Assembly: GCA_030591685.1 (NCBI GenBank)
Contig: JAUVAX010000015.1
Coordinates: 1 to 49,850 of the forward strand
Source: Pseudobdellovibrionaceae bacterium
GTDB taxonomy: Bacteria > Bdellovibrionota > Bdellovibrionia > Bdellovibrionales > UBA1609
Length of the DNA stretch: 49,850 nucleotides
Direction: 5' to 3'
Shown in pieces: positions 3,822 through 40,901 of this stretch (position 1 is its first letter; each line of letters begins with the position of its first letter). The notes under the pieces were generated by a model. It ran no database searches. It saw only the letters and a list, made by a program, of their open reading frames with translations, and had not been told where the DNA came from. The translations under genes and the position numbers were made by a program.

Positions 3822-5021
3822 CTAGTTCATTTTAAATTTAACGACAACGGGGTAGTGATCTGAGTAGCCGAGCTTGTTTATATCTGTAGTGTTGAAGTTG
3901 CCTTTAAAAGGGACCAACTGATCAATGGGGTAGTAGTCAGGAGAGCGGCCCCTATATTGGTGATGTTTAGAGTTTACCGGGGTCCCAACGATGCGATAAC
4001 TATGAGGTAAAACCGTAACCCCTTCAGGAGACCATAAGTTTTGACTAATAAAAAGTCGATCAAAATGGTTATACACGCCCTCCCTTTGATACCAATAGGT
4101 AGCTGGCGGCATTTGATACCTCATTGGGTTTCTAGATTTTTCTGAAATAGATTGAGTGTCGTATAAAAACAAATCCCATGTTGTGGGGCTTGTTAGCATA
4201 TCATGAAAGGGATGAGGAGAGTCGTTAGTCGTAGTATTAAAGTCTCCCGTAGCAATCACATGATAGTTCTTAATACCAATTTTATTTGTTTGCTTGACGA
4301 TTTCTTCAGCTAAAACTTGTGAGGCCGTAAAGCGAGTAACAGAGCCCTTACCTTGCGACGGCCAATGATTAACATAAACGGCGATTACTTTTTTAGATCT
4401 ATTATGGCCTCTTTTTGGGCGAAAATGAGCCCTTAGTATATTACGAGTTTTAAAGTTTACACGGCTAGAAACATCAATCTCCTGATGCTCTATATATTCA
4501 AGCTTGTTTTGGTTAAAAAGCAGGGCTACGTCAATGCCTCGTCTGTCGGGGCTATTTGTAACTAAATAGTTAGAGTAGCCTAAAACCTGGCCAAGCATTT
4601 TTACAACATTTTCGTTTTCAACTTCTTGCACAGCTAATAAATCAGGGAGAGACCCTTGAAGTGCTATTGATTTTTTAAGCTGGTGGAGCTTGAGTAAAAG
4701 TTTTTCTTTGGTCCAATCCAACCTTAAACACTGCTCTCGGTAGTAGTCTTTGCTGAGCCTTTGGCAGTTAATGGCCTTTCCGCGAGAGTTTATCGGTAAA
4801 AATGTGTGATCAAGCTTGCCCTTATCGTGTTTCGTATCAAAGAGGTTTAATACATTATAAGACATCACTTTAAACTCAGTGGCCCCGGTTTTTGTAGCCA
4901 TTCTGGCTTGAGATGAAAAGGGGTAAAATTCTTGTGAATTATAATTGGATTGCTGTTGAGAAAGGGCCTGAATTTGAAATAATATGACCATCCATGCTGT
5001 AAAAACCTTAAGTGCGTTCAT
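3822..5021 (-). CDS. secreted endonuclease/exonuclease/phosphatase (EEP) family protein
   Basis: Signal peptide, SYNVLNLFD, VQEVEN, RGIDVALL, NHWPS, GDFN, GYSDHYPV. Confidence 0.9.
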   Translation of the reverse strand: MNALKVFTAWMVILFQIQALSQQQSNYNSQEFYPFSSQARMATKTGATEFKVMSYNVLNLFDTKHDKGKLDHTFLPINSRGKAINCQRLSKDYYREQCLRLDWTKEKLLLKLHQLKKSIALQGSLPDLLAVQEVENENVVKMLGQVLGYSNYLVTNSPDRRGIDVALLFNQNKLEYIEHQEIDVSSRVNFKTRNILRAHFRPKRGHNRSKKVIAVYVNHWPSQGKGSVTRFTASQVLAEEIVKQTNKIGIKNYHVIATGDFNTTTNDSPHPFHDMLTSPTTWDLFLYDTQSISEKSRNPMRYQMPPATYWYQREGVYNHFDRLFISQNLWSPEGVTVLPHSYRIVGTPVNSKHHQYRGRSPDYYPIDQLVPFKGNFNTTDINKLGYSDHYPVVVKFKMN

Positions 5022-5158
5022 CCGTGCCCCCTAGATATGGTGTTTTTTAATTCCCAACATACATATCATGGGGTATTTGGGGCTCGCAATGGTCTTTTTG
5101 AAAAAAATTCAAATAACACATCAAGGCACTTTGAGTGCTCAATAGGTGTGCTGATACC

Positions 5159-5989
5159 TTACTTTTTGATTGTTTTTTTGGCACCTGTTTTTGAACTCAC
5201 TTTGGCCTTTTTAGAGCCTCTCACATTTTTTGTGGTCTCTGTTTTTTCGACTCTTCTTTTGAAAACCCTAAGTAGGTCTTGAGTTTTTAGCTCTTTGTAG
5301 TCACCGGGCCTCAGTGACGAAAGCCGGTATTCACCAATAGCGATGCGGGTGAGTTTTTTTACATCAAACCCGATTTTTTCAAACATTTTTCGGATTTGTC
5401 TGTTTTTGCCCTCATTAATGACGACTCTCACCCAGTCATATTTTTTTGATTTACCGTAGGGGACAACATCGGCCTGTAAAGCCGCGACCTTACCCCCAAT
5501 GATGGTGACTCCATTTTTTAACTTCTGAAGTTGGGCCGGGGATATTTTGCCATCGATTTTAGCCACATATGTTTTATTTATTTTTGACTTTGGGTTAGAG
5601 ACCTCATTTGAAAAGTCCCCGTCATTGGTGATAAATATTAACCCCTCGGTGGCCCAGTCTAAGCGGCCCACAGGGAAGAGGCGGTGTTTTTTAAATTTTT
5701 TAAAGTACTCCATAACCATGGGTCTATCGAGAGGGTCAGAGGTGGTTGTGACAACATTTTTAGGCTTATGAAAGGCAAAGTAAACTTTATCTTTAGCGAG
5801 CTCTATTACTCGGCCGTTGACTTTAATAGAGTCTTCTTTGGAGTCGACTTGTGTGCCGAGCTCTTTAATGGTTTTGCCGTTCACTTGAACGTCGCCGGAT
5901 GTGATGAGCTCATCGGCCTTTCGTCGGCTGCAAACTCCGGCCTCGGCCAGAAATTTATTTAATCGGGTGAGCTTATTTTTTTGTATCAT
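5159..5989 (-). CDS. rRNA pseudouridine synthase, RsuA/RluB family
   Basis: S4 domain RLNKFLAEAGVCSRRKAD, catalytic VGRLD, EGKNRQIRKM. Confidence 0.93.
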   Translation of the reverse strand: MIQKNKLTRLNKFLAEAGVCSRRKADELITSGDVQVNGKTIKELGTQVDSKEDSIKVNGRVIELAKDKVYFAFHKPKNVVTTTSDPLDRPMVMEYFKKFKKHRLFPVGRLDWATEGLIFITNDGDFSNEVSNPKSKINKTYVAKIDGKISPAQLQKLKNGVTIIGGKVAALQADVVPYGKSKKYDWVRVVINEGKNRQIRKMFEKIGFDVKKLTRIAIGEYRLSSLRPGDYKELKTQDLLRVFKRRVEKTETTKNVRGSKKAKVSSKTGAKKTIKK

Positions 5990-6951
5990 TAGATCCTGCT
6001 ATCGGCTGAATTTTTACGAGTGTGTTTAACAATCGCTAGTTCCAGTTGAGATAGCAGAAGCTTAAGGTATTTGTCATTTGGAAAAATGTTTTCTACTGCA
6101 AATTGAGCCTTTTGGTAGGTAGATCGGGCTAATTTCTCATGCCCGGGGTCATTATTGATGAGCATTTGTGTAGACTTTTCAAGTAAACAGGTGAGTTCGA
6201 TATACTCAGGGTCTGATTTTGCATGGATATAATGGTACTCGAGTTGTTTTAAGTGCCTATAAACATCCGGGACTTGGTTTAAATGGTTAAACTCAATGCG
6301 CGAATGCCTTTGTAGAGAGTAGCCCCTAATTAAGTGCCCATACCCATTACTAGCCCCTGCAATGTATAAATGTGCAAAGGTGTGGTCGTTTATTGAAAGA
6401 GTATGTAAGTGATGAGGTGTAAGTTGCAGGGCATGGTTATAAGTTAAATGAGTAATGGGGCTTAAGGGCTCTAAAACTCCATTATTAATTTTTTGAGTAC
6501 TATGAAACACTTGGACTTGTAAGTCTTGCTTTGTGGAGAAATCTAAAACTAAACATTGGCCCTTGGGGAGCTCTATAATTTTTATTTTTTTTGTGTTGTC
6601 TGAAGGAGCGTTAAATTTTTGCGCTAGGCTGTCTTTAAGGTCCGATGGCTTTTTAATATTTATAAGCTGCCAGTTATACCGTTGACTGATTTGCTGAGCC
6701 GGGTAGTTGAAATGAAAATTACGACAAAACCGGCCGCATAGGTCGGTGATTTGCTCAAGAAGCTCCTCTTGGTTTTGCTGCCAGTGTTCGTAGATATAAA
6801 TGCGATTGAAAAAATCACTTAAAATACCATCACCAAAAACTTCGTTGTCATTTGTATAGTGAGTTAAATAGTTATAAAAACAAAAACGAAAAGCATTTTT
6901 TTGAGGATCTAGGCTTTTTATGAATTCTTTTAATTGCTTTGCTTTGGCCAT
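5989..6951 (-). CDS. hypothetical protein
   Basis: 320-aa ORF whose stop overlaps the synthase start (TAATG). Confidence 0.7.
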   Translation of the reverse strand: MAKAKQLKEFIKSLDPQKNAFRFCFYNYLTHYTNDNEVFGDGILSDFFNRIYIYEHWQQNQEELLEQITDLCGRFCRNFHFNYPAQQISQRYNWQLINIKKPSDLKDSLAQKFNAPSDNTKKIKIIELPKGQCLVLDFSTKQDLQVQVFHSTQKINNGVLEPLSPITHLTYNHALQLTPHHLHTLSINDHTFAHLYIAGASNGYGHLIRGYSLQRHSRIEFNHLNQVPDVYRHLKQLEYHYIHAKSDPEYIELTCLLEKSTQMLINNDPGHEKLARSTYQKAQFAVENIFPNDKYLKLLLSQLELAIVKHTRKNSADSRI

Positions 6952-7102
6952 GCTTAACGATAAAACGAAGTGTCCAATCCACCAAGTTCGTATTTTTTAG
7001 CCACGGCATGTTAAAAGTGCTTTAAAGAAGGCATTTTTTGTTAGGGTTTACTTCAGGAGTGCGTTAAGCTTATTTACGAGTCAGCATATTTATAGTTAGG
7101 GG

Positions 7103-7669
7103 ATGGGGTTGAGAAGAGAGTTAAATCCAAGTATTTTTGGCACAAATCCCCCCTCTTCAGCTGACCGTGAAGGGCCTGAGTCAGGCTCTTCGCCCGCAGT
7201 ACAGCCCCAATATAACTATATGCCGGTCTCAAATTCACAACAGGTGGGTTTAGGTTCGGCAGATGCTCAAATTATTTCGGTCCAAATTGAAGGCTTAAAA
7301 GAAAAGATCAAGCAGCTCGTACATCGTACGCAAACCCAAGACGCCATCATTGAAGAGCTCGTAGGTAGCAGCCAAATTAAATTTGAACGGTTCAAGCAAG
7401 CCTTTCACCGTGTTGAAGAGTTTGTTAAAAACAACATTAACGAACTTAATGGTCGATTCGGAAAATTAAATAGCCGTATTGTTTCACAAAACTATAATGA
7501 TTCAAAACTTGAACAAATGATGCAAAAGCACAATGAAATCATCCTCGCCTTTGAGGCCAAGCTCTCAAAGGTCCAAAAAGTCATGTCAGACCAAGAAATT
7601 CAACTTATGAACTACAAAGGGGCCCTTGAAGAGGCTCGGCACGAAATCGCCCGCTTAAAAAGACTTTAA
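7103..7669 (+). CDS. hypothetical coiled-coil protein
   Basis: Disordered N-terminus followed by a long heptad-like helix ending ARHEIARLKRL. Confidence 0.75.
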   Translation: MGLRRELNPSIFGTNPPSSADREGPESGSSPAVQPQYNYMPVSNSQQVGLGSADAQIISVQIEGLKEKIKQLVHRTQTQDAIIEELVGSSQIKFERFKQAFHRVEEFVKNNINELNGRFGKLNSRIVSQNYNDSKLEQMMQKHNEIILAFEAKLSKVQKVMSDQEIQLMNYKGALEEARHEIARLKRL

Positions 7670-24790: not shown

Positions 24791-25657
24791 TTGATGCAAA
24801 TATTAGACGGCAAAGAAGTTTCGAAAAAATGTAAAAAGCAAATTTTCAAGCAAGTTCAGGCGCTTAAGGCCGAATCAGGCCGTGCCCCTTGTTTGGCCGT
24901 GGTCCTTGTTGGCGATGACCCGGCAAGCCAAGTGTATGTGCGAAATAAAATAAAATCTTGTGAAGAGGCGGGTATTTTATCCAAAGAGGTGCGCTTACCC
25001 TCTGATGTCACTCAAGCCCAGCTTGAAGAGCACATCAAAAAACTTAATAACGATGACAGCGTACATGCTTATTTAGTGCAGTTGCCTTTGCCAGAGACCC
25101 TCGATAAAACTAGGGTTTTAGACCTTATTGACCCCCTTAAAGACGCCGATGGCCTCACAACAAGTAACTTAGGGCTTTTATTTGCCTCAAGGCCAAGGGT
25201 GGTCCCTTGCACCCCTAAGGGTGTTATGAAAATTTTAGAGCACTATAACATTGAACTTGCAGGCAAGAGAGCCGTTGTTATTGGCCGAAGCCAAATCGTG
25301 GGTCTCCCCATGGCGCACCTTTTATTAGGGGCTAATGCTACAGTGACCGTATGCCACTCCAAAACAGCCCAATTAAGTGAGGTCACACGCCTGGCCGACA
25401 TTGTGATTGCAGCGGCCGGAAAGCCAGAATTTTTAACAACCGAGTATTTTAAAAAAAATGCCGTAGTTATAGATGTAGGCATACACAGAAAGGCTCTTGA
25501 GGGCGACAAATCAAAACTTTGTGGTGACGTCAATTTTGACGATGTCAAAGATCACCTTTTAGCCCTCACCCCTGTGCCTGGGGGGGTCGGCCCCATGACC
25601 ATAGCTATGCTTTTGCAAAATACTTTAGAGCTATTTAAACTAAGGCTTCAGGTTTAA
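24791..25657 (+). CDS. folD: bifunctional methylene-THF dehydrogenase/cyclohydrolase
   Basis: ASQVYVRNK, VQLPLP, PCTPKG, GRSQIVG, TPVPGGVGPMTIAML. Confidence 0.97.
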   Translation: MMQILDGKEVSKKCKKQIFKQVQALKAESGRAPCLAVVLVGDDPASQVYVRNKIKSCEEAGILSKEVRLPSDVTQAQLEEHIKKLNNDDSVHAYLVQLPLPETLDKTRVLDLIDPLKDADGLTTSNLGLLFASRPRVVPCTPKGVMKILEHYNIELAGKRAVVIGRSQIVGLPMAHLLLGANATVTVCHSKTAQLSEVTRLADIVIAAAGKPEFLTTEYFKKNAVVIDVGIHRKALEGDKSKLCGDVNFDDVKDHLLALTPVPGGVGPMTIAMLLQNTLELFKLRLQV

Positions 25658-25690
25658 AGAACTGGGTTTAATAAGTAGTTATAATCAAGC

Positions 25691-27826
25691 TTATCTATAG
25701 GGGTTATAGAGCTTCATGGCCTTTTCATCAATGGCAGTAGGGTTCACGGTAAAACCATATTTTTCAGGGTTCATTGTGACAAGTGAAATGGCTAAAAACT
25801 TATAAGTCTCTGAAATACGCATACAGTGTACCATTTTATGTTTTCGGATCATCTTAAGGCTATTATCAAACATCTTTGTATCATCAAACACCTGGTATCT
25901 AGCCGGCAGTTTGTTAAAGCAAGCTCGCCTCTTAGAAAAATCGTCAATACCTGCGCATTGAAGGGCTCTCATGACGGAGCCTTTATTTTTTTGTAAACTT
26001 TTTTTACATTGCTCTGGGTTTTCTGCTTGGGCGCAGGCGACGTTGACAGCAGCGTTGGGTTCACCTAAATGATAGCCCAAATATAATAGCTCGGGGTTGT
26101 TACCGATCATTTTAAATATGTCACTGTGAAAAATAGCCCCCAGGTAGGCTGAGGGCACAAGGTAGGCACGGTCATCTGATAGGTTATGAGTTATTTTATT
26201 AACGGTACGGCCATCGACATTGGTTTGTCCGGGGCCCACAAGGCTAAAAATATGTGGTTCGGCATTAATGTTTAAGTCTTTATAAATTTCTTTTGTATAA
26301 ACCTTCGCCTCAACGGGTTTAAACTGAAAGGGCCCTACAACTTTTGAGCTCGAAACGTTCGCGATGGGAAAGCTATTGTTCTGACCATACGTATACGCTG
26401 ACTCTACATACATAACATTTGAAGCAATGGGAGTTACGTCATAAAAATCATAGGCCTGTCTTAAGTAAGGGCTGAGCGCGGCCATGTTGTTAATGTGCTG
26501 TTGTGCCATTTGGCTTTGGTCCTGTGAGCGGTAGTTTTTTTTACAAGAGCCATCAGGGCACTCTAAATTTTGTTTAGCAATATTGAAGTATTGGCAGTAA
26601 TTGAGGTCTTTTTTACCGGGGGAGATAATATTAAGGTGGTATTGTAGGTACTTATCGACGTCTAAATTTAAAAACTTTTCTGTTTGCTTGTGTGCATTGT
26701 TAAGAGCTTTGTTGTTAAGGTCGATTTTAAAAACTTTAGGGCTGACCTTTTTGTCGACGGACTGACGCTTTTCATGGGGCACAATCGTAGTGGGTACAAA
26801 ATCGGGGTCTGTTGTGACAATTTGTAGGCTCTCTTCGGGTAAGTCAATGCGGGTCACCTGATCATGTGAGCCGTAGTTGTCACTTTTTGAGTCCGCGTTG
26901 ATATAATCAACACCAGTAATGTCACTGCTGGCATCGGTAACAGGGGTGATGGTCCCATCAGCGTTATGTATGCTCACTGTGCCTGTAATCGGCAGGGTGC
27001 TTTCGTCGCTCAGGTCGTTTTCATCAGTGGGTCTTACAATATTTTTAAGGGTTAATTCTTTTCCAGAGTCAGAAATACTAATACTTACCGTTGAGGTTGT
27101 GGGCCCTTTAGCAATAGATATTTTCTCTTGAGTTGAAACAGTGGACTCGTCGAGGTTAACAAGGTCGTCAACAAGTGGGCTCATTTCAACAGGGTGCCTC
27201 GTTGCTCTTTTGACTTTAATTTGAACTTGTTTTTTTGAGTAAATAAATCCAACGCGACCTGTTTTAATACTGGCCTTATCTTTAACTTGATGTTCAGTCA
27301 CATAAGCAGCAACAACTTTGCAAGCAGGGGCTTTTACCGAAACACAGGTGGCGGTCATAACATAGCTTGTCCCTGGGATGCCGCTTTCAAGAGTGGAGCT
27401 GTAGCTTTTATCCAGGGAGAGGGGCTGAGCCTCTGTGTTAATAAAAAACTCTAAAGGCTGTTCAAGGTGTTTAAATTCAAATTTAAATTTTATAAAAGCA
27501 ACTTCTTTTGAGGGGGCGGTTTTTAATAAATACTTTTGCTCGCTATTGTACTGCGAGACTTCAAGAGCTTTTAATTGGCTCAGTAGGTTTTCAGTAGTGA
27601 GCTCATTAGTTTGACGCAGTAACTTTTTATACTGTTTGTCGTACTGTCGCTCTCGTTGAATGTAACTTGGGGGCGTGGGTCTGGTGGCAGTGAGTTCAGT
27701 TAAATCAGCTGGCGTTATGGTGGTAATGTGTGTGGTCTGTCCACCTTTTGGCCACTGAGCTTGCTCAGCGCAGGCAAGAGCCACAGTACTTAGAAAAATA
27801 ATAAGAACGCTTTTTTTTATCACCAC
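25691..27826 (-). CDS. lipoprotein with divergent MltD-like lytic transglycosylase domain
   Basis: VALA-C lipobox; VES, SSSKVVGPFQF, DDR, GYHLGE, ETYKFLA...NPEKYGF match SLT/MltD motifs in order. Confidence 0.7.
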   Translation of the reverse strand: MVIKKSVLIIFLSTVALACAEQAQWPKGGQTTHITTITPADLTELTATRPTPPSYIQRERQYDKQYKKLLRQTNELTTENLLSQLKALEVSQYNSEQKYLLKTAPSKEVAFIKFKFEFKHLEQPLEFFINTEAQPLSLDKSYSSTLESGIPGTSYVMTATCVSVKAPACKVVAAYVTEHQVKDKASIKTGRVGFIYSKKQVQIKVKRATRHPVEMSPLVDDLVNLDESTVSTQEKISIAKGPTTSTVSISISDSGKELTLKNIVRPTDENDLSDESTLPITGTVSIHNADGTITPVTDASSDITGVDYINADSKSDNYGSHDQVTRIDLPEESLQIVTTDPDFVPTTIVPHEKRQSVDKKVSPKVFKIDLNNKALNNAHKQTEKFLNLDVDKYLQYHLNIISPGKKDLNYCQYFNIAKQNLECPDGSCKKNYRSQDQSQMAQQHINNMAALSPYLRQAYDFYDVTPIASNVMYVESAYTYGQNNSFPIANVSSSKVVGPFQFKPVEAKVYTKEIYKDLNINAEPHIFSLVGPGQTNVDGRTVNKITHNLSDDRAYLVPSAYLGAIFHSDIFKMIGNNPELLYLGYHLGEPNAAVNVACAQAENPEQCKKSLQKNKGSVMRALQCAGIDDFSKRRACFNKLPARYQVFDDTKMFDNSLKMIRKHKMVHCMRISETYKFLAISLVTMNPEKYGFTVNPTAIDEKAMKLYNPYR

Positions 27827-38243: not shown

Positions 38244-39059
38244 ATGTCGCAAAGCTTAACGCCCGTAATAAAAAATCAATTACTCTCAAGCGCTTGCCAG
38301 GCGGCAAAGCTTGGTAGACAGGTATTGTTGGATTATTTCGGGCACTTATCTAAGGTGAGTGAAAAGCACTTGGCCGGTCTAGTGAGCGAGGCCGACGTGG
38401 CCAGCGAAAAGGTAATTAAGGACTATTTAGCACAAAGGCATCCCAAAATTGGCTTTTTGGGCGAAGAAGAGGCCTTTGAAAACCCCAACCTTAGCCTATC
38501 ATCACATGAGTCACTTTGGGTGGTTGACCCCTTAGATGGCACGACTAATTATGTGCACAGGTTCCCTATTTTTTGCATAAGTATTGGGCTTATTATTAAC
38601 GGTAAAATCGAAGTGGGCGTTATAGATGTGCCTATGCTCAATAAAACCTATATGGCCACCGCCGGGGGCGGGGCCTTTGCCAACGAGGTCCCTTTAAAGG
38701 CCAGTCAACGAAGCCAAGTTTCTCAAAGCTTATTGGCCACAGGTTTTTTTGCTCAAAATAAGCCCGCCTTAAAACAGCAGTTAAAAATATTTTCTGAATT
38801 TATAGGCCAAGCCAGGGGTGTTCGGCGAGCCGGCGCTGCGGCTTATGATTTATGCATGGTTGCTGAGGGTGTTTTTGATGGTTTTTGGGAGCGTAATTTA
38901 AGCCCATGGGACACCTGTGCCGGCACCTTGCTTGTTCGCGAAGCCGGGGGCATTGTAACTAACTACGAGGGCGGCGAGTACCACCCCGATCAAAACTCTA
39001 TCCTAGCCTCTAATAAGCCTCTTCATGGGCAACTTTTAAAGGTGACTTCATTATATTAA
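38244..39059 (+). CDS. suhB: inositol monophosphatase family protein
   Basis: LGEE, WVVDPLDGTTNY, RRAGAAAYD, WDTCAG. Confidence 0.92.
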   Translation: MSQSLTPVIKNQLLSSACQAAKLGRQVLLDYFGHLSKVSEKHLAGLVSEADVASEKVIKDYLAQRHPKIGFLGEEEAFENPNLSLSSHESLWVVDPLDGTTNYVHRFPIFCISIGLIINGKIEVGVIDVPMLNKTYMATAGGGAFANEVPLKASQRSQVSQSLLATGFFAQNKPALKQQLKIFSEFIGQARGVRRAGAAAYDLCMVAEGVFDGFWERNLSPWDTCAGTLLVREAGGIVTNYEGGEYHPDQNSILASNKPLHGQLLKVTSLY

Positions 39060-39110: not shown

Positions 39111-39866
39111 TTATTGATAGGTTAAATTTTCTAACTGTGCTTTTTTAATCCGTCGTATAAACTCCCTGCGGCTAATCATCTTACTGTTATGGCTTTGGAT
39201 TAAGGGCGACATCTCCTGAGTATCGATCCACTTTAGGCCCCGTGTTTTTAAATGCTCAATAAGAGCAACAAATGCAATTTTTGAAGTGTTGTCTTTAAAA
39301 TGAAACATGCTTTCCCCAAAGTACACGCCCTTAATAAATGTGCCATAGAGGCCGCCGACAAGTTTTGACCCCTCCCAGACCTCAACACTGTGCGCGTAGC
39401 CGAGTTTATGTAGCTCTATATAGGCATTAATAAAATTTTTAGAAATCCATGTTGGTCCTTGGTTGCCCCTCGAGGCATCTGCCGAGGCGTTAATGACCCC
39501 AATAAAATTTTCATCAAAAGACACCCTGTAGGGTGAGTTTTTAATAATTTTTTGAGTTGTTTTGTTAATGCGAAAATCAGAAAACTCTAAAATTGCACGA
39601 TGTGGGGGGGAGTACCACTGTATGTGGTCGCCATTATCTACCCACGGAAAGATCCCGTTCCTGTACGCCTCAATTAAACTGGGGACAGTTAGGGGAGCGT
39701 CCACAAAAACTTCACCAGTAAGGGGGCTCGTAACTAAGGGTTTTTTAAAAAACACAGGTCGCGGCTTAAATGTTTTATAGCAAACATTCTGCCCCCATAG
39801 GGGCCCGCTCATAGAAGAGCCTAAAAAAAATATTAATATTATAAGTGCCTGATACATTTTGATCAT
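39111..39866 (-). CDS. aat: leucyl/phenylalanyl-tRNA--protein transferase with N-terminal signal-like extension
   Basis: AYRNGIFPW, TWIS, AHSVEVW, LVGGLYG, GESMF, SKIAF, IDTQ. Confidence 0.92.
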   Translation of the reverse strand: MIKMYQALIILIFFLGSSMSGPLWGQNVCYKTFKPRPVFFKKPLVTSPLTGEVFVDAPLTVPSLIEAYRNGIFPWVDNGDHIQWYSPPHRAILEFSDFRINKTTQKIIKNSPYRVSFDENFIGVINASADASRGNQGPTWISKNFINAYIELHKLGYAHSVEVWEGSKLVGGLYGTFIKGVYFGESMFHFKDNTSKIAFVALIEHLKTRGLKWIDTQEMSPLIQSHNSKMISRREFIRRIKKAQLENLTYQ

Positions 39867-39997
39867 AAACCCCTGCGGACTTAAAATTAACGAAGCAAGT
39901 GGGGTTTTATCTTACAAAAAGTGAAATTTAAAGTTTAAGTCTTAAAATTTATATAAACTTAACTATTTTTTGAAATATGTACTTATTTTTTGATTAT

Positions 39998-40031
39998 AAA
40001 AAAAAGGGGCTTACTAGTAAGGCCCCTTTTT
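39998..40031. terminator. intrinsic terminator
   Basis: A8-GGGGCTTACTAGTAAGGCCCC-T5, downstream of the minus-strand lipoprotein gene. Confidence 0.85.
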
Positions 40032-40058: not shown

Positions 40059-40655
40059 TTACATGCAGTACCCAACAAATTCATAAACTTTACGCTGCCA
40101 GTTACGGGCTGATGTAAAGTGGGCTAATTTGTGGCTGTCACTTTTTTGAAAATCAATATTCGTTTGCTCGGTGTAAAATATAATGCGGTATTCAACATCT
40201 CTAACGCCGCTATTTCGCTCATAGTAGCAAATTTTTTCGTGGCCATTCCAAAAGCAAACATACCTCTGGGGGCCTTCGCAGAATTCGGTACCTCTTATTA
40301 AGCGTCCTGTTTCATGCTCTGTTGTGCGAGAGCCTGTGATATCAAAATCTTGCTTAATCTTTTTGCGATCAATAAAAATATTTTTCATATTCTCATCAAA
40401 GGCATCCTTAGGCAGCATAAAGCTAAACTTTTTTGTGAGTTCTTCGTTTTTAACTTCGGCCTTTAGAGTAAGGTGATCGCCACTTTTTTTGACCTTTACC
40501 TTTGCCTCATAAGTACCGGTGGGTATTGTGGTAGAATCCTTTTCATCGCTAAAGGTAATATCCTCATTAACGGTAAACTGACCAATTAATGTATCGCTAC
40601 AGGCTGTGAGCATTAAAGACGCGCACACAAACAGACTTGTTAATATTTTATTCAT
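40059..40655 (-). CDS. hypothetical lipoprotein
   Basis: RBS GAGGGGGA, MNKILT...LTA-C lipobox, four Cys in the C-terminal part. Confidence 0.8.
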   Translation of the reverse strand: MNKILTSLFVCASLMLTACSDTLIGQFTVNEDITFSDEKDSTTIPTGTYEAKVKVKKSGDHLTLKAEVKNEELTKKFSFMLPKDAFDENMKNIFIDRKKIKQDFDITGSRTTEHETGRLIRGTEFCEGPQRYVCFWNGHEKICYYERNSGVRDVEYRIIFYTEQTNIDFQKSDSHKLAHFTSARNWQRKVYEFVGYCM

Positions 40656-40901
40656 AGTATCCCCCTCATTGGACTTTAGTAGAGTATAGGACACATAAAA
40701 TTAAGAGCAACAGAGGTTTATGCGCTTATCACGCCGCTTCCTAAATTTATTAGCTCTTTGTCTGTAAGCCGTCGAATAGTCCTGTCAAAAATGTCACTTA
40801 AAACCCTTTAGGGGGGTCAAAAAATTATCAATGAGTAGTGGCAAAAATTACCTACTCAATGTGACGGGGGTTTGAATGAGCAACTTAGGCGAAGGTCTAT
40901 A

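Follow-up and report, generated by a model that had tools for sequence, protein, structure and literature searches.

An accessory leucyl/phenylalanyl-tRNA-protein transferase with a putative export signal in a Pseudobdellovibrionaceae bacterium

Can an enzyme that depends on aminoacyl-tRNA be made for export? The leucyl/phenylalanyl-tRNA-protein transferase Aat (L/F-transferase), which places Leu or Phe on N-terminal Arg or Lys, is a textbook cytoplasmic enzyme because its donor, aminoacyl-tRNA, exists only in the cytoplasm; the periplasm holds none. The question is raised by an aat gene on the minus strand of contig JAUVAX010000015.1 from a Pseudobdellovibrionaceae bacterium (GenBank assembly GCA_030591685.1), which lies in the 49,850-nucleotide stretch of DNA that was analysed here and is referred to as the window. 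The family trait of a cytoplasmic protein without a targeting signal is not shared by the longest open reading frame (ORF) of this gene, an assessment that depends on the predicted start codon. A preliminary description of the locus had read its N-terminus as a Sec-type signal and had suggested that the product could serve as an effector in the cytoplasm of another cell. The reading we favour, in which we infer the start codon, export, cleavage, donor substrate and action on prey, is that the gene encodes a second, intact Aat that is translated from Met1, exported via Sec and still tRNA-dependent in its chemistry, and that would likely act in prey. We regard this reading as a whole as reasonably probable, and the export of the window protein, taken by itself, as quite likely.

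The window gene is a member of the Leu/Phe-tRNA-protein transferase family with intact motifs. Its product matches the Pfam profile PF03588 (Leu_Phe_trans) over profile positions 3-170 of 171 (E 1.5e-59; 200.8 bits, cut-off 22.7) and scores 169.7 bits against the NCBIfam equivalog TIGR00667 'aat' (cut-off 143.55), and searches of Pfam and NCBIfam with the protein returned no family besides Aat. Structure searches matched it to E. coli Aat, the enzyme that serves the Leu/N-degron pathway (2z3k, 2dps and 2cxa), at E values of about 4e-36, with the 2z3k match (E 3.4e-36) extending over residues 55-247. The core motifs that had been described as intact, GIFPW, GESMF and D-x-Q, are indeed all in place, as is TWI (Table 1). 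GESMF aligns with the GESMF of E. coli Aat, and D186 and Q188, the catalytic residues of the E. coli enzyme, lie in the IDCQ that is aligned with IDTQ of the window protein. The window protein has Ser at the 'VIxxCA' position, where at least 90% of 22 aligned Aat sequences have Cys. For E. coli Aat, the passages of PMC4105747 that deal with tRNA docking name R76, R80, K83 and R84 as the basic cluster involved. The counterpart in the window protein is INKTTQKIIKN (residues 100-110), in which the aligned residues are K, K, K and N, that is, three of the four positions are basic and all three are Lys. Unlike the E. coli enzyme, the window protein has a signal-like segment of 18-20 residues and a linker of about 20 residues before the fold, and there is a second aat copy in its genome.

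That second copy was found in a search for PF03588 across the whole assembly (2.66 Mb, 98 contigs, completeness 100), which returned exactly two matches, the window gene and a gene on contig C38 (G000:C38). The product of the C38 gene has about 220 residues, is without a hydrophobic N-terminus and shares 39% identity with the window protein. In a 55-row tree, the C38 copy clusters with the single copies of two genomes of the same family, and the window copy stands alone on a long branch (0.76). The signal-less second aat that the preliminary description had thought worth looking for is thus present, and it groups with the single copies of relatives. The same genome carries clpS and clpA next to each other on contig C84. 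Since the C38 aat and the clpS-clpA pair make up a complete Leu/N-degron set without the window gene, we treat the window gene as an accessory paralogue. The C38 copy would then be the housekeeping N-degron enzyme, and the window gene would encode a second, catalytically intact paralogue.

The N-terminus of the window protein reads MIKMYQALIILIFFLGSSMSGPLWGQNVCYKTF, with Met at positions 1, 4 and 19 and with C29 as the only Cys. Counted from Met1, the protein opens with MIKMYQALIILIFFLGSSMS, followed beyond the putative cleavage point by GPLWGQNVC. We assessed N-termini with a strict signal heuristic of our own, under which the n-region must carry a net positive charge, nine uncharged residues in a row must average 2.0 or more on the Kyte-Doolittle scale, and small residues must then stand at -3 and -1 after this h-region, with no charge in between. 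The window N-terminus passes, and its mean h-region value of 3.59 lies within the top 8.5% of the 293 signal-like N-termini in the genome. The heuristic is passed by 22.4% of 1310 near-unambiguous N-termini in the genome, by 6 (0.8%) of 756 ATG-initiated open stretches of at least 19 codons from 653 intergenic gaps, and by 1.66% of 100,000 sequences generated with a first-order Markov model of the intergenic gaps. Among Aats, none of the 119 nearest homologues of the window protein and none of 46 canonical matches pass. We consider a spurious in-frame signal look-alike unlikely, and its rarity by chance is the main reason for favouring the Met1 start. The codons used in the segment (ATA, TTA, TTT) are among the common ones of the genome. 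The GC content of codons 1-18 is 24% versus 41% for the ORF, a value that is equalled or undercut in 16.7% of the 293 signal-like N-termini. As for the Sec-type signal that had been seen before the Aat body, the segment passes the heuristic and is rare by chance, but the start codon on which it depends is equivocal, and a start at Met19 remains a rival.

Two other signal types were rejected by eye with the standard lipobox and twin-arginine consensus motifs: a lipoprotein signal, with Q-N-V before C29 and no lipobox L-[ASTVI]-[GAS]-C, and a twin-arginine translocation (Tat) signal, with no RR in the n-region. In the AlphaFold2 (AF2) model of the window protein (mean predicted local distance difference test score, pLDDT, 86; predicted template modelling score, pTM, 0.79), the structure is confident from about residue 40. 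The first 35-40 residues or so lie outside the fold and contain only a short helix at residues 7-12; pLDDT averages 42-51 over residues 1-30 and is below 50 at residues 1-4 and 16-34. The QNVCYKTF stretch, which had been singled out for a CxxxF segment, is present as C29-YKT-F33 but could not be tied to any motif. In the favoured reading, translation would start at Met1, residues 1-18 or 1-20 would form a Sec-type signal peptide, and cleavage near residue 18-20 would accompany Sec export. The mature enzyme would begin at about G21 with a flexible linker of about 20 residues that holds the single Cys, continue with the canonical Aat fold, and leave the predator cytoplasm.

Table 1. Features of the window aat locus, with positions in the window, and transporter genes beside secreted Aat genes of other genomes, with positions given by locus.
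Feature	Position	Strand	Details
Accessory aat (Leu/Phe-tRNA-protein transferase paralogue)	39111..39866	-	251 codons from Met1; ORF, profile and structure matches
Putative Sec-type signal peptide MIKMYQALIILIFFLGSSMS	39807..39866	-	Codons 1-20; n-region K3, h-region A7-L15, small residues at -3/-1 S18/S20 or G16/S18
PF03588 catalytic domain	39174..39680	-	Residues 63-231; motifs inside: GIFPW 71-75, TWIS 139-142, GESMF 184-188, IDTQ 214-217
Cys29 codon, sole Cys of the protein	39780..39782	-	In unstructured linker between signal and fold
AGGGG Shine-Dalgarno-like run	39870..39874	-	3' end at -4 from Met1
Internal ATG, Met19 (rival start)	39810..39812	-	Preceded by AGG ending at -8
TATAAT hexamer	39838..39843	-	In codons 8-10, 26-31 nucleotides upstream of Met19; could be a -10 box if Met19 starts
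Terminator-like hairpin followed by U8	40002..40030	-	-14.3 kcal/mol, z -1.89; 3' of upstream lipoprotein gene
MFS transporter genes beside secreted Aat	L139 7027-8436; L140 6928-8145; L141 3995-4930; L146 494-1714; L144 8288-9424		

Export of Aat-family proteins appears to occur in these predators, as a separate lineage shows by its predicted signals. In 384 genomes of the order Bdellovibrionales, we found a PF03588 match in 327 and two or more matches in 38. Full-length second Aat copies were retrieved from 20 genomes in three families, and all 20 of them open, after an ATG, GTG or TTG, with a signal-like hydrophobic stretch; in 16 of the 20, Ala is the last residue before the mature part (e.g. 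...SFA, ...AEA). Soon after the stretch comes a Cys. The strict heuristic is passed by 18 of these copies and a relaxed one by 19. In a tree that included 19 of the second copies, these form one side of a branch with a support of 83 in the SH-like approximate likelihood ratio test (SH-aLRT), and the window row falls outside. The loci of this lineage are L028 and L030-L048 (genomes G020, G253, G257, G260, G261, G289, G293, G323, G326, G328-G331, G336, G337, G339, G340 and G381-G383).

A search with one second copy as the query returned 73 protein clusters (P0121-P0193) at E 2e-45 or better, whose source names read just L/F-transferase or 'GNAT family N-acetyltransferase [Bdellovibrionales bacterium]'; the 46 canonical matches mentioned above stand further down the same list. 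Of these clusters, 40 pass the strict heuristic and 56 the relaxed one, and several of those that fail are gene calls with a truncated N-terminus or have signals that contain neither Lys nor Arg. When the 73 clusters were aligned with the window protein, the positions D, Q, E, S and W148 were invariant in all 74 rows. Both conserved Cys residues, one after the signal and one in VIxxCA, occur in 65 of the 73 clusters, and, counted from the N-terminal Cys on, 64 of the 66 rows that possess it contain exactly two Cys. The predicted model of one member has a confident fold from the N-terminal Cys onward. We read this two-Cys group as a secreted, catalytically intact Aat lineage, probably disulfide-bonded if judged by the Cys counts. 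It is a stronger case of an exported Aat than the window gene. Three clusters (P0177, P0181 and P0182) score with the lineage and have the motif APDD..NGLV, but carry neither the signal nor the N-terminal Cys, and may represent its cytoplasmic relatives or ancestors. In a sample of 401 genomes of the phylum, a profile of the N-terminal motif matched only three of the four genomes of one genus, with one further weak match to a frame of 106 residues. A contig scan with the alignment of the secreted group gave, among the matches listed, 79 canonical loci and one of the secreted type; its motifs are shared with canonical Aat, and it is uninformative beyond the order.

The window gene resembles the secreted group in being an extra Aat beside a canonical copy, in a predator of the same order and with intact catalytic residues. 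Shared as well are an N-terminal signal, putative in the window protein, and behind it a Cys about 10 residues ahead of an F-x-[KR]-x-P motif, with C29 aligned to the N-terminal Cys of the group. The window gene was nevertheless rejected as a member because of its indels, the absence of the Cys pair and the absence of the N-terminal motif. Members of the group have an insertion in the SDRKxLR block, another of about 10 residues after C-A-x-x-x-R, and GLxxKWGA, whereas the window protein has none of these and shows the canonical gap pattern. The group has two conserved Cys residues, whereas the window protein has C29 only and Ser at the second position. A profile of the N-terminal motif of the group, CExxLxxEFxRxPDDxxNGLVT, has no match anywhere in the window genome, and Pfam and tblastn searches of that genome found no copy of the secreted lineage. 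In a quick tree, a branch with weak support (78.6) sets the window protein and the secreted group apart from the other rows. Forcing the window protein to group with nine canonical rows from the database improved the log-likelihood by 17.6 units over the quick free tree (p-value of the approximately unbiased test, p-AU, 0.767). The trees neither place the window row inside the secreted group nor reject a sister position. Should the signal be genuine, the simplest account is that it was acquired independently by a body of canonical type, and that body may have come from outside the order.

The rejection from the secreted group and the indecision of the trees weigh against our reading of the window gene, and so do several of the results that follow, most of which bear on where translation starts. 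The best surviving alternative is a start at Met19 (MSGPLWG...), with the AT-rich 54 nucleotides upstream serving as promoter or leader that is open in frame by chance; the product would be a second cytoplasmic Aat, perhaps acquired by transfer and of ordinary or slightly altered specificity. We consider this alternative unlikely, if serious. As a reference we used the 872 genes of the genome whose first ATG lies at most eight codons from the upstream stop. The AGGGG run that had been described as a ribosome-binding-like sequence before the first ATG is present at 39870-39874, at an unusual distance from Met1. The same run precedes 91 of the 872 reference starts, with its 3' end at -8 to -6 in 48 of the 91 and at -4 in only three, while the AGG before Met19 ends at the common position -8, near the preferred spacing of the genome (73 of 721 AGG occurrences counted; the peak is at -9). 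A perfect TATAAT stands 26-31 nucleotides upstream of Met19, and the 24% GC of codons 1-18 also fits intergenic DNA (mean 35%). With a start-site position weight matrix (PWM) that spans -25 to +12, Met1 scores 0.35, at the 23rd percentile among true starts and the 84th among internal ATGs, and Met19 a little lower at -0.66 (14th and 74th); both values are mediocre.

Against the Met19 start, a promoter scan of the minus strand upstream of Met1 and Met19 found no sigma-70-like site, and an in-frame upstream ATG followed by 18 open codons that are signal-like would seldom arise by chance (0.8-1.7%). In the aat frame, no stop occurs in the 33 codons before Met19, versus six and one in the other two frames. 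The start-site data lean slightly to Met1 and decide nothing. The preliminary description had named a Met19 start in the only aat of the genome as the scenario that would undo its proposal; the 'only aat' part is excluded by the two copies, whereas the Met19 start itself stays in play with equivocal start-site scores. A start at Met4 was rejected: its PWM score is -3.56 (3rd percentile of true starts), the AGGGG run would end at -13, and there would be no charged n-region.

The homologues of the window protein bear on the same choice. The protein forms a cluster of one among about 5.8 billion proteins, and its best matches, at about 50% identity (51% at most), cover 75-86% of the query, all of it in the body; those with a source name are from Pyrinomonadaceae. 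When residues 1-62 were searched by themselves, the window protein itself was the sole match. The nearest homologues are without the extension: the residues before GIFPW number 41 in the median and 56 at most in the 119 nearest homologues. Counted from Met1, the window protein has 70 such residues, and counted from Met19 it has 52, so that a Met19 start would fit their range. No orthologue was found that could speak to conservation of the extension. The absence of a signal from all 119 homologues also fits the Met19 start, as do the canonical indels of the body, whose nearest sequences are canonical Aats, some with Acidobacteriota source names, and a constrained tree with canonical rows that is at least as good as the free one. 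To these points must be added that the signal call for the window protein comes from our own heuristic and not from SignalP. On the other side, a canonical aat is already present in the genome, and secreted Aat paralogues exist in the order. A Bdellovibrionales record considered as the origin of one database match of about 50% identity was rejected, since the sequences differ.

If the protein does leave the cytoplasm, where could it work? Every donor-contact position that we checked is kept in the window protein, and for this reason the mature enzyme would be expected to depend on aminoacyl-tRNA still and to move Leu or Phe from it to the N-terminus of a protein. An exported enzyme would find such a donor only in another cell or leaking from it, which points to prey as the likely site of action. 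Two points stand against this step: a Sec signal reaches only the periplasm of the predator, and we saw no sign of a route into prey. The earlier suggestion, that such an effector marks prey proteins for degradation or depletes charged tRNA, would be compatible with the conserved catalytic and tRNA-contact residues, the only features to speak to it. A wider and frankly improbable scenario is that Bdellovibrio-like predators export active L/F-transferases, an ability that would have arisen at least twice (in the window gene and in the two-Cys group), and that these enzymes act in prey. There, Leu- and Phe-tRNA of the prey would be used to put destabilising residues on prey proteins, the ClpS-ClpAP system of the prey would be turned against it, and these would be the first N-degron enzymes known as inter-bacterial effectors.

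A different possibility is that the protein is exported and acts in the periplasm of the predator itself on a donor other than tRNA, such as another aminoacyl ester or a peptide, and would then be a repurposed GNAT-like transferase or hydrolase and not an N-degron enzyme. Such a function would agree with the lack of aminoacyl-tRNA in the periplasm. It is kept alive by the secreted lineage, in which a divergent (head-to-head) gene for a major facilitator superfamily (MFS) transporter stands beside the secreted Aat in five of nine loci, from two families (Table 1), a pairing that may point to a small-molecule context. Of these five transporters, four have weak, below-cut-off matches to aromatic acid/H+ symporters, and the fifth (L144) has no NCBIfam match. 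The window genome, however, has no MFS transporter gene of this kind by tblastn, no result indicates an alternative donor, and the catalytic and aminoacyl-adenosine- or tRNA-contact positions that we examined are all conserved in the window protein and in the secreted group. We hold this possibility to be very doubtful.

Equally hard to sustain is a Met1 start with the hydrophobic segment as an uncleaved inner-membrane anchor, which would draw on the lack of a classical A-x-A site (the candidates are S-M-S or G-S-S) and on a K/R-rich flank after the segment (K31, K34, R36, K41, K42) versus a single K3 before it, a charge distribution that could favour an N-out, C-in orientation by the positive-inside rule and leave a body that, if facing the cytoplasm, still meets aminoacyl-tRNA and could act on membrane-proximal substrates; but with only about 9-11 residues (A7-L15) and GSSMSGP behind it, the strongly hydrophobic run has the usual layout of a signal h- plus c-region and would make a short membrane span, and the first 10 residues after the putative cleavage site are uncharged.

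Full-text literature searches returned no paper on a secreted or signal-bearing Aat. The only match for the enzyme name together with Bdellovibrio was PMC12419801, which, in the part that mentions it, cites the Aat structure merely as a GNAT reference. The Aat family is known, and as far as these searches go an exported form has not been described; the window gene is a probable case of one, with a start codon that is predicted only. The comparable enzymes Bpt, eukaryotic ATE1 and the peptidoglycan transferases FemX/FemABX are, to our knowledge, all cytoplasmic. They belong to the same GNAT-like fold class and use aminoacyl-tRNA as donor outside translation (in part from PMC4105747, the rest being general knowledge). 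If predators do export active Aat, it would be either an N-degron enzyme used as a weapon in prey or a fold with a new donor outside the cytoplasm, and either outcome would be new biology for the N-degron and predation fields. The secreted group, with its 73 protein clusters, offers many sequences on which the idea of an exported Aat can be tested.

The surroundings of the window aat contain nothing that points to a function, and we found no secretion or injection genes beside it. A convergent gene of the inositol-monophosphatase family lies downstream and ends at 39059, and further neighbours encode a SPOR-domain protein and FliL. The hairpin and U8 that follow the upstream lipoprotein gene suggest that aat is its own transcription unit; this hairpin is shown by folding and was missed by the consensus scan that had also covered promoters. 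Upstream on the same strand, the gene at 40059..40694 codes for a protein of 211 residues with a lipoprotein-like start (…LMLTAC), four further Cys and no Pfam or NCBIfam match.

Several other variants of the family were seen in the order. At locus L145 (genome G020), a divergent secreted Aat-like gene (3931-5811 and 6130-7179 for the pair) stands directly upstream of a gene for a secreted subtilase with a PPC domain; the Aat-like protein has 349 residues, with an insertion of about 40 behind FPW, and its catalytic Asp is replaced by Tyr. A third class consists of open frames of about 390-630 residues with a weak PF03588 match to the C-terminal half only (for example G337:C21:52527-53009, which is locus L049, and frames on G253:C12, G253:C4, G301:C55, G302:C5, G329:C262 and G346:C71). 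In L049, a long form of 430 residues, a Cys follows a hydrophobic stretch close to the start, and no ATG, GTG or TTG precedes them. At the other extreme, 57 of the 384 genomes have no PF03588 match. Among them are two genera in their entirety, with 15 and 10 genomes; several of these genomes are single contigs of 1.2-2.5 Mb, and whole predator lineages seem to be without Aat. In the relative G001, the canonical Aat (L022/L029; contig C3, about 25057-25875) is interrupted between its N-terminal and catalytic parts by a low-complexity stretch of about 60 residues, rich in T, G, D, A and E, which splits the Pfam match in two.

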